The notes under the pieces: generated by a model
The model's database searches: none
What the model was told of the DNA's origin: nothing
The model's input: only the letters and a program-made list of their open reading frames with translations
Made by a program: the position numbers and the translations under genes
Shown: piece after piece, positions 7,336 to 11,827 of the stretch
Position numbering within the stretch: the stretch's first letter is position 1
Layout of the letters: the number at the start of each line of letters is the position of its first letter
IMG/VR virus record: IMGVR_UViG_2531839450_000009
Strand: one strand, 5' to 3'
Source: a virus
Lineage: Duplodnaviria > Heunggongvirae > Uroviricota > Caudoviricetes
Length of the DNA stretch: 30,601 bases

Positions 7336-9596
7336 AAGAGCTGTGCTATGGATCTGTTTGCAGTGGAATTGAAGCCGCGAGTATTGCCTGGGAACCGTTG
7401 GGTATGCGTCCGGCGTGGTTTGCTGAAATCGAGCCTTTTCCATCTGCCGTTCTTGCGCACCGCTGGCCCCATGTCGCCAACCTTGGCGACATGACAAAAC
7501 TTGCCCAAAAAGTCCTGGCTGGGGAAATCGAATCCCCTGATGTGCTCGTCGGGGGAACACCTTGTCAGGCATTCAGTATCGCAGGATTAGGTGGTGGGCT
7601 TGATGATGAGCGTGGCGCGCTAACTTTAAAGTATGTGGAGCTTGCAAATGCAATTGACGACAAACGGGCTGAGTCATTTCTCAAACCAGCCGTTATCGTC
7701 TGGGAAAATGTCCCAGGAGTCTTGTCATCGGCAGATAACGCCTTCGGATGTTTCCTTGCCGGATTGGCTGGAGAAGATGTGCCATTTGAACCAGGTGATC
7801 GACCTGAATCAGGAAAAAGCAACGCGTTCTGGCGGTGGGATGGCAAAACCGGTTGCCATGTTCCAAAGTGGCCGCAGTGTGGTTGTATTTATGGACCGCA
7901 GCGAAAGGTGGCCTGGAGAATCCTTGATGCCCAATACTTCGGAGTGGCACAACGACGCCGACGCGTGTTTGTTGTCGCAAGTGCTCGAACAGACCTCGAT
8001 CCCGCAACGGTACTTTTTGAGTTCGAAGGCGTGCGCCGGAATATTGCGCCGAGCCGAAAAAAGAAGGAAATCGCTTCCGCCATTACTGCAAATGGCGCTG
8101 CAATCAGTGGCGAAAGCCTAAATCCATGCCTACACGCTGGCATGTCCCCCGGTATGAAATCGACGAAAGCCGTAAACGGTTTCAGGATGGCGGCATTTGG
8201 GGAATATATTGACGATGAAACCGCATCGACAGTAAAGGCAAGAGACTTTAAAGATGCCACTGACCTTGCCGTTTTTAGCAGCACTGGAGCAGGTTTTTGG
8301 TCAGAAGGGCATGGTACATTGCGGGCGCGTGAGCAAGAAAGCCATGAGCATCTTGTTACATTGGCTTTTCCTGAGCGTATGAGTGGTACACAACATGCAG
8401 CAACTAAGAATACTTCACCATCTCTAATGGCTCAAAATCCAACTGCTGTTTGCTATGAAGTAAGAAACGAAGAAGTAGCTGTCCGCCGTCTTACCCCTGT
8501 CGAATGTGAGAGACTTCAAGGTTTTCCTGATGGGCATACGTTGATCCCTACGGAAAAGCGTAAAAAAGTTAATTCAGATGAACTGGCATATCTGCACAAT
8601 CACTATCCAGATTTAAGCGAAGAAGAGGCCGCGATGCTTGCAGCTGACGGACCGCGTTACAAAGCGATCGGCAATAGTATGGCAATACCAGTAATGCGCT
8701 GGATTGGCGAGCGGATTACCAGGGCTGCATGTCGGCAGAATGAAGGGCGTGAAACAAAAGAGCGAAAAGTTAAACCAGCGGCAGAATTCGAACGGTCCAT
8801 ATTCAAATGGGCTGGTGGAAAATTTGGTGTTCTGGAACAAATCTTTCGCTATTTGCCAGAAGGGAAGCGCCTGATCGAACCTTTTGTCGGTGGCGGAGCT
8901 GTCTTCACGAATGCCGGATACCAGGAAAATCTGCTAAATGATGTGAATGCTGACCTGATTAACTTTTACAAGACTCTGCAACGCGAGGCGCATTCACTTA
9001 TCACACTGGCGCATCGGTTTTTCCAGGACTACAACACACAGGAAGGATACCTGGCAGTACGGAATGCGTTTAACAAACAAGTCTATGATGATTTACATCG
9101 CGCAGCGGCGTTTTTGTTCCTGAACCGACATTGTTTTAACGGATTGACGCGTTACAACCAGGCCGGTGAGTTCAATGTCGGTTATGGGAAGTATAAAACT
9201 CCGTATTTCCCATTACAGGAGATGGAAGCCTTCCTCGGTGCGGAAGGGTGTTCTGAGTTTGTATGTGGTGATTTTGCAGCGGTGATTGAAGCTGCCGGAG
9301 AAGGAGATGTCATCTTTTGCGATCCGCCGTATGAACCGCTTCCAAATACAGAGGGATTCACGAACTATTCCGGTCATGACTTTAAGTTTGAAGAGCAAAA
9401 ACGCCTGGTGTCTCTGTTGACGGATGCTCATCGTCGAGGTGCAAAGGTTCTCATTACTAACAGTGGCGCGCCAAATATCAGAGAGCTTTATCATGACAGT
9501 GGCTTCAGAGTGGAACCTCTTTTTGCCAGACGTTCTGTGTCTTGTAAGGGGGACACTCGAGGTGTAGCTCATGACGTTTTAGGTATATTGCTCTAA
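7332..9596 (+). CDS. dmt: bifunctional DNA methyltransferase: N-terminal C5-cytosine MTase domain fused to C-terminal Dam-like N6-adenine MTase domain
   Basis: ORF track, 754 aa, GTG start overlapping the hrdC stop. N-terminal half has the catalytic [11 protein letters not shown] and ENV (WENVPGV) motifs of C5 MTases. C-terminal half has the DPPY motif (IFCDPPYEP) and Dam-like FKWAGGK/SAM-binding region. Confidence 0.88.
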
Positions 9597-9603
9597 TAAA
9601 TTT
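9587..9603 (+). promoter_or_regulatory. C1 repressor operator-like 17-mer overlapping the dmt stop codon
   Basis: attgctctaataaattt is a 17/17 match to the recalled C1 operator consensus. Embedded in the 16-bp palindrome ctaataaatttattag, followed by taatat (-10-like). Confidence 0.6.
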
Positions 9604-9619
9604 ATTAGTGTAATATCGC

Positions 9620-9776
9620 CTCAATGAATCGTGATTTATAGAGCGATTTAGCTGTTAGCCGCGACAGGCGCGGCGGTAAGCATGGCTGGGCCTAGTCCTC
9701 CCAGACAAACCACCGAGTTGCCAGGTTGACCATGCGCCTAAGTGGCAACTCCGAAGTGCGTTACGAGCTTCCAGTT
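9620..9776 (+). ncRNA. candidate structured small RNA between the dmt-end operator/promoter and an intrinsic terminator
   Basis: No ORF. Several hairpins (gccgcg..cgcggc; gttgcca..tggcaac enclosing about 19 nt) and ends at a strong terminator. Ends not mapped. Confidence 0.3.
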
Positions 9777-9804
9777 TGCCCATCTTCGGGTGGGCGTTTT
9801 TTTT
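9777..9804 (+). terminator. Rho-independent terminator
   Basis: GC-rich hairpin gcccatc-ttcg-ggtgggc followed by a run of 8 T. Confidence 0.65.
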
Positions 9805-9986
9805 CAGGGTTTTCGTCATGGTTAGCGACTTTGCGGCGGTTTAGAAACTGACCATTAAAGTAAATGCAAACGATGATCTGATGATGGTAGCGGCCTAAGA
9901 AGCCAGACGCCACGGGGTATGAGTCGTCCCCCGTCAAAAAAATCGACCGCAGAGTGTCCCCGTCTGTGTATTAGGGAACGGGGAGG

Positions 9987-10067
9987 CACAACAGGTAAGG
10001 GCGCTGGTGTGATTAACCAGATGAACGAGAAGGGGCCATCTGTTGGTCAGCGTCCTTTCCTGTTGCG
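9987..10067 (+). ncRNA. hairpin element E1 (candidate structured RNA, family of four)
   Basis: cacaacaggtaaggg ... cctttcctgttg form a long closing stem around an internal hairpin ctggtgtgattaaccag. Confidence 0.3.
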
Positions 10068-10269
10068 TTTTCTTTTCAGCGTAACAGCGGTGCTTAACAG
10101 CACTTTGGGTACAGTTCCACGAATTTACGGGTATATCCCGTCATGCTGAAGGCGCTAATCACGCTGGAAGCCAGGGTTGTGCATCCCCTGTTACCGAATT
10201 GCAGCCAGGGCGCGGTGCGCCGAAAAGCATACGGAGGTGGAAGCCCTCGCCGGAGACGTACCCGGCAGG

Positions 10270-10311
10270 TGATGGTGTAGCTCAGCGGTTCGAGTCCGTT
10301 AATCGGCACCA
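10270..10311 (+). pseudogene. tRNA remnant: D-loop-like and T-arm plus 3' acceptor-ACCA, anticodon arm absent (tRNA-Thr-like 3' end)
   Basis: gtgtagctcag fused directly to ggttcgagtccgtt-aatcggc-a-cca. T-stem agcgg/ccgtt pairs with loop TTCGAGT. The 3' end atcggcacca resembles E. coli thrW as I recall. No complementary 5' acceptor strand and no anticodon stem-loop. Confidence 0.4.
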
Positions 10312-10312
10312 G

Positions 10313-10399
10313 CACAACAGGTAAGGGTATTTTGCGACGTCGGAGATCGCCGAGCTTGGCAGAGGGTTCGAATCCCTACGAAGTACCCTTACCGTTGTG
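10313..10399 (+). ncRNA. hairpin element E2 (candidate structured RNA with T-arm-like internal hairpin)
   Basis: 16-bp closing stem cacaacaggtaagggta / tacccttaccgttgtg (one bulge) enclosing gggttcgaatccc. Not a cloverleaf. Confidence 0.3.
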
Positions 10400-10544
10400 A
10401 TGAAGTGCAGCTCTTTGAAGCAACCAGAAGATAAGCATCTGGCTTCACAACATAAACCGCAGGAACGACCAATAAACGGTAGTCCGTATGGAGAACACCC
10501 CGTTGAGGAAGAGGCCTGGCCGGAACCGTAACCGGCACTACAAC

Positions 10545-10626
10545 GTTGAGAACACTGGCGTAACGGGGTCATATCCCAATCTACGAATAAATGTTGCGTT
10601 GCAGCGTGACAACCAGTGTTCTCAAC
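10545..10626 (+). ncRNA. hairpin element E3
   Basis: Perfect 14-bp stem gttgagaacactgg / ccagtgttctcaac enclosing gtaacggggtcatatcccaatctac; tail attgtggtgaatgc shared with E4. Confidence 0.3.
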
Positions 10627-10815
10627 ATTGTGGTGAATGCACAGGCTGATGTGCCGCAACTACAGTAGTGCGCGCTTTGCGGGGCTTGCTACAACCCTGT
10701 GTCGGAGTTCAGCACCGACCATCACAGTTTGATTCTCTGGCATGAGCATAACGCTGAAATAAGTCCAGTCTGGTGCGGCCCGATCACCCGCCGTTAGCTC
10801 CACGAAACGGAGCAC

Positions 10816-10892
10816 GTAACAGGTAAGAGCATTCTCCTGTAACGGGTTCATATCCCAATCTACAGGTCCACCAGGAATGCTCTTTCCGTTGC
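10816..10892 (+). ncRNA. hairpin element E4
   Basis: Imperfect long stem gtaacaggtaagagcattctcctg / caggaatgctctttccgttgc enclosing taacgggttcatatcccaatctac; tail ttgcggtgaatgc. Confidence 0.3.
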
Positions 10893-11042
10893 GGTGAATG
10901 CGGCTAAGCGCACGCGGAACAGTTAAAACAATCCTCCTTAATGGTTAAACATTCCGGCGTTAATTGTTAACTGGTTAACGTCACCGGGAGGCACTCGGCA
11001 CCGCAATCTAATAAATATGTCACTTTTATTGAGGGATAACCA

Positions 11043-11477
11043 ATGTTCGGTAAATTGTTCGGCAAGAAAGTCGCTTCTGCAAAAGTAGAGCTGAAAAAAG
11101 TTGAGAATCGCGATCTGATGGAGGCCATCATCGGTGGCTGTTTGTTGGTGTCTGCCGCTGATGGTGAAATCGAAAAAGAAGAAACAGCGAAACTTGATCA
11201 GCTTGTCCGCTCTAATCCGCGTCTTAGTCATTTTGGTAACGAAATTACTGCAACAATTACCCGCTTTACCGAGCAACTGGAAGCTGGCTTCCGTGTTGGT
11301 CGCATGAATATCCTTCGCGAAATTGAAGATATCAAAAACGATCCAAAAGAAGCGGAAGAAGTATTCGTTAACATGCTGACAATTGCAGAAGCGGACGGTG
11401 AAATCGAGCCAGCAGAACACAAAGTACTGGAAGAAGTAGGCCGTCGTTTAGGTCTTCGTGTGGAAGATTATCTGTAA
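11043..11477 (+). CDS. tciA: TerB-domain protein (tellurite-resistance TerB family)
   Basis: ORF track, 144 aa. Pattern IIGGCLLVSAADGEIEKEE ... MLTIAEADGEIEPAEHKVLEEVGRRLGL, two D-G-E-I repeats typical of TerB. Position upstream of tRNA-Ile and ban matches my memory of P1 tciA. Confidence 0.7.
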   Translation: MFGKLFGKKVASAKVELKKVENRDLMEAIIGGCLLVSAADGEIEKEETAKLDQLVRSNPRLSHFGNEITATITRFTEQLEAGFRVGRMNILREIEDIKNDPKEAEEVFVNMLTIAEADGEIEPAEHKVLEEVGRRLGLRVEDYL

Positions 11478-11641
11478 TGGCAAGCAAGGCACGTATCGCA
11501 ATCGCCATTGGTTTTCTCTTGCTGTCCGTGCTGGTGGATTTCACCAGCACAATCCTGTCAGTTTTATCGGACGGGGCGTTGGTGGCAGTAGCTGTAACAT
11601 TGGTATGGCCGATATTAAAAACAGCTTCTAAGGATCAGTGA
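11477..11641 (+). CDS. small membrane protein (54 aa), translationally coupled to tciA
   Basis: ATG overlaps the tciA stop (TAATG). Hand translation MASKARIAIAIGFLLLSVLVDFTSTILSVLSDGALVAVAVTLVWPILKTASKDQ. Below the ORF-track size cutoff. Position corresponds to P1 tciB as I recall. Confidence 0.5.
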   Translation: MASKARIAIAIGFLLLSVLVDFTSTILSVLSDGALVAVAVTLVWPILKTASKDQ

Positions 11642-11751: not shown

Positions 11752-11827
11752 GGCCCTTTAGCTCAGTGGTTAGAGCTGGCGACTCATAATCGCACGGTCA
11801 CCGGTTCAAGTCCGGTAGGGGCCACCA
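11752..11827 (+). tRNA. trnI: tRNA-Ile (anticodon CAU, lysidine type, AUA-decoding); tRNA-Met cannot be excluded from sequence alone
   Basis: Clean cloverleaf: acceptor GGCCCTT/AGGGGCC, D-arm GCTC-AGTGGTTA-GAGC, anticodon loop CTCATAA, T-arm ACCGG-TTCAAGT-CCGGT, encoded CCA. Near-identical to E. coli ileX as I recall. Confidence 0.85.

Follow-up and report, generated by a model that had tools for sequence, protein, structure and literature searches.

Introduction

How does a tRNA-like piece of DNA come to consist of a 5' end joined straight to a T-arm and a CCA end, with no anticodon arm between them? The question is raised by a 30,601-nt stretch of viral DNA (IMG/VR record IMGVR_UViG_2531839450_000009), the whole of which is referred to here as the window, and which belongs to a P1-like (Punavirus) phage-plasmid. 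A sequence-only reading of the window had noticed such a piece at positions 10270-10311 and had offered three explanations for it: a decayed tRNA gene, a tRNA 3' fragment carried at an integrase-type attP site, or a mimic of RNase P or CCA-enzyme substrates. The piece itself is confirmed, and its segments are identical to nt 1-20 of trnA and nt 47-76 of trnT of phage P1 and hence represent no chance likeness. We propose, with a probability of roughly 0.93, that the best explanation of the remnant is a deletion scar fusing the start of P1 trnA to the end of P1 trnT, with both genes rendered null. Among the three earlier explanations a decayed tRNA gene comes nearest, but two neighbouring genes have been cleanly fused by one 113-bp deletion, which is not the same as the decay of one gene.

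Anatomy of the tRNA-like remnant

Window positions 10270-10311 read, element by element, T, GATGGTG, TA, GCTC, AGCGG, TTCGAGT, CCGTT, AATCGGC, A and CCA. In the remnant proper (10271-10311, 41 nt), a tRNA 5' end and the beginning of a D-loop run straight into a T-arm, a 3' acceptor strand and ACCA. Its 3' part presents a 5-bp T-stem, a TTCGAGT T-loop, a 7-nt 3' acceptor strand, the discriminator A and CCA, and upstream of the T-arm stand a 5' acceptor strand, U8-A9 and the 5' side of a D-arm; the anticodon arm and the 3' side of the D-stem are absent. In a four-way alignment with P1, the remnant matches trnA at 20 of 20 positions and trnT at 30 of 30, the two stretches overlapping in a 9-bp repeat (Table 1). 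The D-loop and the T-arm with its acceptor strand had been read as belonging to a single tRNA; they derive instead from two tRNA genes, Asn and Thr. The earlier statement that the piece has no complementary 5' acceptor strand is correct as far as in-register pairing is concerned, as GATGGTG (10271-10277) set against AATCGGC gives two mismatches and two wobbles over seven positions when read from the sequence, but a 5' strand is nevertheless present and comes from tRNA-Asn. The combination of a missing anticodon arm, an incomplete D-arm and mismatched acceptor strands indicates that both tRNA genes are null.

The sequence-only reading had named a complete cloverleaf as one finding that would speak against it, and none emerged on folding or from either of two tRNA searches. 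ARAGORN, run on the whole window, made no call at 10271-10311 and reported a single tRNA, the gene with anticodon CAT (Table 1). Likewise, Rfam model RF00005 gave no match over 10271-10311 at its gathering score, nor at E<=10 in a permissive scan of window 9600-11000. A complete cloverleaf hidden in the remnant is ruled out by these searches.

Table 1. Features of the window that bear on the tRNA-like remnant, with positions counted from the first nucleotide of the window
Feature	Position	Strand	Remarks
P1ban/P2ban promoters with bivalent C1 operator Op72ab	9571..9616	+	Annotated in NC_005856; near-identical in the window; drive the tRNA-containing operon in P1
5' segment of the remnant, P1 trnA (tRNA-Asn GTT) nt 1-20	10271..10290	+	Acceptor 5' strand GATGGTG, TA, D-stem 5' strand GCTC, D-loop start; identical to NC_005856 trnA in alignments
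3' segment of the remnant, P1 trnT (tRNA-Thr TGT) nt 47-76	10282..10311	+	Variable-loop end, T-arm AGCGG/TTCGAGT/CCGTT, AATCGGC, A, CCA; 30/30 identity
Deletion junction, one surviving copy of the 9-bp direct repeat TCAGCGGTT	10282..10290	+	Two copies in P1
Long hairpin cassette directly after the CCA end	10313..10399	+	Untouched by the deletion; MFE -41.6 kcal/mol, z -6.05; conserved outer stem
Sole remaining intact tRNA, anticodon CAT (in P1, tRNA-Ile2 trnI)	11752..11827	+	ARAGORN; Rfam RF00005, 64.7 bits; P1 annotation

A 113-bp deletion between direct repeats

A comparison with relatives, which the sequence-only reading had recommended, was decisive for the origin of the remnant. P1 and most of the sampled relatives carry two intact, adjacent tRNA genes at the remnant position, trnA (Asn, GTT) and trnT (Thr, TGT), and ARAGORN calls Asn(gtt) and Thr(tgt) there in both P1 and JL22. 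When the window, P1 and JL22 are aligned, the window displays one clean 113-bp gap whose ends fall within TCAGCGGTT, and the flanks are otherwise identical. The P1 trnA gene begins with GATGGTG, TA, GCTC, AGCGGTTA and GAGC, and P1 trnT ends with ATGTC, AGCGG, TTCGAGT, CCGTT, AATCGGC, A and CCA. In P1, the distance between the two copies of TCAGCGGTT, of which one lies in the Asn D-loop and the other at the Thr variable-loop/T-stem, is exactly 113 bp (positions 2080-2088 and 2193-2201 of the P1 locus, L001), and window 10282-10917 is 100% identical to positions 2193-2828 of that locus. The window thus shares with the P1 trnA-trnT tandem (NC_005856 69348-69501) its position, its flanks, the first 20 nt of trnA and the last 30 nt of trnT, but it is without Asn nt 21-76, the spacer and Thr nt 1-46, one repeat copy being counted as retained.

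In E. coli, deletions between short direct repeats result from slipped-strand mispairing or from RecA-independent short-homology events, and the classical lacI hotspots are of this type. The window allele resembles such deletions in that a perfect 9-bp repeat marks the endpoints, one copy of it is kept, and the length lost corresponds to the spacing of the repeats. It differs in that its repeats match each other by chance, one lying in the D-loop of a tRNA gene and the other in a functionally distinct part of a second tRNA gene, the variable loop/T-stem. The single retained copy, together with the correspondence of deleted length and spacing, constitutes the textbook signature of slipped-strand or short-homology deletion.

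On this evidence, the following course of events can be proposed. The ancestor would have carried, as reference P1 does, a tandem of trnA (tRNA-Asn GUU, 76 nt), a 2-nt spacer and trnT (tRNA-Thr UGU, 76 nt). Misalignment of the TCAGCGGTT repeats would then have led to the loss of one copy and of the intervening DNA. The anatomy of the junction points to slipped-strand mispairing during replication, or to RecA-independent short-homology recombination, as the likely route, and hairpins formed by the tRNA gene sequence in the interval may have aided the deletion. The outcome would be a chimera, 41 nt long, that unites Asn nt 1-20 with Thr nt 47-76, in a phage-plasmid left with only its third tRNA (CAU). 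The literature searched yielded nothing useful on the P1 ban-operon tRNAs or on the 113-bp deletion.

Predicted fold of the chimera

A deletion scar might nonetheless encode an RNA that does something, and one alternative is that the chimera acts as a functional tRNA-like minihelix, be it an RNase P-processed acceptor/T-arm mimic, a substrate for CCA-adding or T-loop-modifying enzymes, or a decoy. Its T-arm is intact and identical to that of a working tRNA, isolated T-arm hairpins can be substrates for TruB and TrmA, and the allele persists in three genomes. The predicted structure, comprising a 6-bp stem and the 5-bp T-stem, is also more stable than those of shuffled sequences (-13.8 kcal/mol, z -2.75, with 1 of 200 shuffles as good). 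However, the two acceptor strands, having different tRNAs as their source, fail to pair in register. RNAfold instead pairs UGGUGU of the Asn 5' strand with GCACCA, which covers the Thr discriminator region and the CCA, and places the Thr T-arm atop a 5x5 internal loop, such that the CCA is engaged in a stem rather than free, and the internal loop interrupts the coaxial acceptor/T stack on which RNase P minihelix substrates depend. In silico, the predicted fold of the chimera therefore offers neither the ~12-bp coaxial acceptor/T helix nor the single-stranded 3' RCCA that define such substrates, and with the CCA buried and the stack broken, the earlier suggestion of an RNase P or CCA-enzyme mimic is left unsupported. 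Two further points weigh against a minihelix: the junction lies exactly in a direct repeat, as would be the case for an accident and not for a designed element, and only about 1 in 600-900 related records carry the allele. We consider a functional minihelix highly improbable; the chimera RNA is predicted to be an inert hairpin with its CCA buried.

Distribution and origin of the junction

The distribution of the allele was surveyed with a 44-nt junction probe (window 10265-10308), either half of which alone is shorter than the megablast word size. The probe had 0 matches in 5,426 complete E. coli genomes, although the locus is present in 631 of them, and 1 in 72,556 plasmids, the latter being pSA20030575.2, a closed, P1-like IncY plasmid of Salmonella enterica. 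The exact junction pattern was present in one IMG/VR contig (L004) and in 0 of the GTDB representative genomes, and none of 24 matching phage records aligned across the site in a single piece. Among the 126 sequences surveyed (the fetched loci and the window), only the window, L003 and L004 possess the junction, and most of the others carry intact arrays; the allele frequency is that given above.

Identity between the window and the Salmonella plasmid amounts to 98.3-98.9%; with L004 it reaches 99.55% over 13 kb and is complete in the 1.6 kb around the site. All three junction carriers have a G in place of an A three bases upstream of trnA, a substitution shared by only 1 of 77 intact loci (L005; IMG/VR and reference records were counted). 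That so rare a flanking SNP is common to the three carriers suggests a single origin, on an L005-like background. Most likely, then, as judged from these sequence comparisons, the allele goes back to one loss event, which was tolerated and has spread since then. Plain single origin may, on the other hand, have to yield to recurrence at the same repeat pair or to later recombination. The flanks of the Salmonella carrier differ from those of the window at 7 positions in 982 nt, as against 3 for the intact locus L093, and are no nearer to the window than those of several intact loci; moreover, the substrate for recurrence is widespread, the 113-bp-spaced TCAGCGGTT pair being kept in 56 intact IMG/VR loci.

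The same carriers bear on whether the junction is real. With a single window sequence available and with deletion endpoints that coincide with repeats, one could suppose that an assembly or sequencing error had collapsed the interval between the two 9-bp repeats. Such a repeat is far too short for assembly collapse, however, and the junction is present in identical form in L004, an independent IMG/VR contig, as well as in the closed plasmid from Salmonella. Both of these differ from the window elsewhere, which makes an artefact very unlikely indeed.

Practically no weight attaches to the last alternative, an attP-type scar in which a host tRNA-Thr 3' fragment is carried at an integrase-type phage attachment site. 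In its favour, the last 10 nt of the remnant (ATCGGCACCA) match E. coli thrW, as the sequence-only reading had noted, and thrW is a known prophage integration site, with the boundary of CP4-6 lying inside the gene in K-12. Over the full 30-nt 3' part, however, K-12 thrW agrees at only 23 of 30 positions, as against all 30 for P1 trnT (counted by eye from the alignment), on which ground thrW is rejected as the source; the 5' part is tRNA-Asn sequence from the adjacent gene and not phage-arm DNA, intact relatives have two complete tRNA genes at the site, and the site is internal to the ban operon of an element whose prophages are plasmids (IncY plasmid prophage). The P1 alignment, together with the absence of an integrase both from annotated P1 57-92 kb (the equivalent 35 kb) and from the surroundings of the site in pSA20030575.2, refutes an integrase scar.

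Genomic setting in the ban operon leader

The deletion scar lies in a region of well-conserved gene order. Across dmt, Pban, the tRNA site and plp/upl, the window agrees with P1 (NC_005856) at 99.3% identity, and its stretch 9700-10900 is matched at this level by P1 and by many P1-like phages, every match being split into at least two pieces around the site. In P1, whose annotation assigns the region to the leader of the ban operon, an operon repressed by C1, the order is the end of dmt, P1ban/P2ban with Op72ab, a dicF-like region, trnA, trnT, plp and upl on the minus strand, tciABC, trnI and ban. The window is syntenic with this locus throughout, from dmt, Pban/Op72 and the dicF-like region through the tRNA site and plp/upl to tciABC, trnI and ban. 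Given the conserved promoters and operator (Table 1), the chimera is probably still transcribed within the C1-repressed ban operon leader.

Several other elements of the leader deserve mention. The dicF-like region is kept at window 9711-9805 (+). A terminator-like hairpin (9774-9796) with a T8 tail, T6 in P1, closes the region, and transcripts from Pban must read through this hairpin to reach the tRNA site. On the minus strand, the plp open reading frame (window 10282-10659), annotated as a putative lipoprotein gene, runs antisense to the hairpin cassettes described below and overlaps the 3' end of trnT. The end of this reading frame coincides exactly with the retained repeat, and the deletion does not alter it. 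Its translation is rich in Cys, Ser and Arg and has no PHROG match, and JL22 is among the relatives in which plp is interrupted, in its case by insertion of a 198-bp cassette. Probably, plp is a spurious reading frame, and it is unlikely to constrain the region. Farther downstream, just upstream of a TerB-like gene, Rfam reports a sub-threshold match to STnc100, a Salmonella sRNA, from window 10859 to beyond 11000 (+), with 34 bits against a gathering score of 47 and an E-value of 2.4e-5; the search range ended inside the match. Window 10917-11508 has no megablast alignment to reference P1, which indicates that the tciA region is a divergent allele.

Modular tRNA arrays and a second fusion

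While the window has lost its tandem pair, the P1-like elements as a group exhibit a modular tRNA array at this locus. The combination Asn-Thr is the commonest, and Asn-Tyr-Thr, Arg(TCT)-Tyr-Thr, Arg-Thr and Asn alone are also represented (for example, at L006 1042-1831, at L007 870-1116 and in IMG/VR loci). Some P1-like elements additionally have a tRNA-Ser(TGA) further downstream. An acceptor stem common to the Arg(TCT) and Asn genes suggests that recombination has taken place inside tRNA genes.

One IMG/VR locus, L043, carries a different, independent Asn/Thr hybrid tRNA gene about 200 nt upstream of its hairpin cassette. As in the window, the same tandem pair has been fused by deletion, with an Asn 5' part joined to a Thr T-arm and acceptor 3' strand. 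Unlike the window, L043 retains a full-length cloverleaf frame: its fusion is in register, and the Asn acceptor 5' strand, D-arm, anticodon arm and variable loop are all kept, such that ARAGORN still calls the hybrid tRNA-Asn despite its mismatched acceptor strands. The window deletion, in contrast, is out of register and has eliminated the anticodon arm. The existence of a second, different Asn/Thr fusion implies that the tandem pair is prone to rearrangement. Evidently, the tRNA genes at this locus are often rearranged, both internally and with one another, and the window allele is one result that proved unproductive.

A further tRNA-like architecture was encountered in L120 (1933-2065, minus strand), where a 133-nt element combines a Thr-type acceptor stem, a D-arm and a T-arm with a structured insert of ~77 nt in place of the anticodon arm. 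Rfam returned nothing significant for this element, the best match being YrlA with 21.4 bits against a gathering score of 69.

Hairpin cassettes following the tRNA genes

The cassette that directly follows the CCA end of the remnant (Table 1) is a member of a family with an outer stem of ~20 bp, which can be written CACAAC(A)GGTAAG-NNNN...NNNN-CTTACC-GTTGTG-ATGAA or, equivalently, CACAAC(A)GGTAAG...CTTACCGTTGTG-ATGAA. This outer stem is conserved around at least 9 unrelated interiors in more than 120 IMG/VR loci, non-P1 backbones included, and in the loci inspected each cassette begins 0-4 nt after a tRNA CCA end. Exchanges in the stem, of U.G, C-G and U-A at some positions and of G.U and A-U at others, keep the plus strand paired and constitute wobble-mediated compensatory changes. 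The cassettes fold with z-scores of -4.7 to -6.05, more strongly on the plus than on the minus strand, and they match no Rfam family. Roles as RNase III-type processing sites or as tRNA-trailer elements are guesses.

The interiors of the cassettes are varied. That of the window (10313-10399) encloses a T-loop-like hairpin, AGGGTTCGAATCCCT. Within the same cassette, a tRNA-like piece at 10329-10385 (+) displays a T-arm-like AGGG-TTCGAAT-CCCT after GCCGAGCTTGGC, which resembles a class II D-arm, and is conserved in P1 and most relatives; neither ARAGORN nor Rfam calls it a tRNA, and the only hit was a chance-level one to mascRNA (14.9 bits, E 9.9). A Y-RNA-like (YrlA) identity, or membership of another known Rfam family, was also considered for the remnant and for the adjacent tRNA-like hairpin, with nothing significant found. 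Two more long hairpins of similar build are located in the window, at 9985-10068 and 10536-10635. Finally, a distant member of the family in L054 (2138-2184; IMG/VR UViG_3300000333_000017) encloses a hammerhead type I-like core, CUGAUGAG-GUCC..GGAC-GAAAC-GC..GC-GUC, which scores 24.7 bits with Rfam RF00163, below the gathering score of 34 (E 0.0016).

Biological implications

The two genes lost in the window raise the matter of what they do for the phage-plasmid. In E. coli, the isoacceptors Asn(GUU), Thr(UGU) and Lys(UUU) are cleaved by the PARIS effector AriB, and PARIS is neutralised by the copies of these tRNAs that phage T5 carries (PMC12409363). P1 trnA (Asn GUU) and trnT (Thr UGU) correspond to the first two of these isoacceptors. 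By analogy, the P1 pair may supply replacement tRNAs for counter-defence, in which case the deletion lineage would be a natural double knockout that persists where tRNA-targeting defences are absent. We regard this as unlikely, if worth entertaining: P1 trnT has G39 for U39 and so departs from the AriB motif U36AAUC|A41, trnA keeps UAAUCA, and support for a counter-defence role is accordingly weak. A variant in which the chimeric T-arm hairpin has itself acquired a role is weaker still.

Taken on its own, the remnant matters little. It is an ordinary, rare loss-of-function allele made of known, well-annotated P1 genes, and the cassette family trailing the tRNAs is more intriguing than the deletion scar. 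For annotation, the consequence is that this lineage has one tRNA and not three, and that the fragment should be recorded as a pseudogene or gene fusion, not as an att site. For the biology of P1-like phage-plasmids, the allele shows that plasmid prophages can be maintained in nature without trnA and trnT, and the deletion lineage provides a ready-made natural knockout with which to test whether the two genes help against tRNA-cleaving defences.
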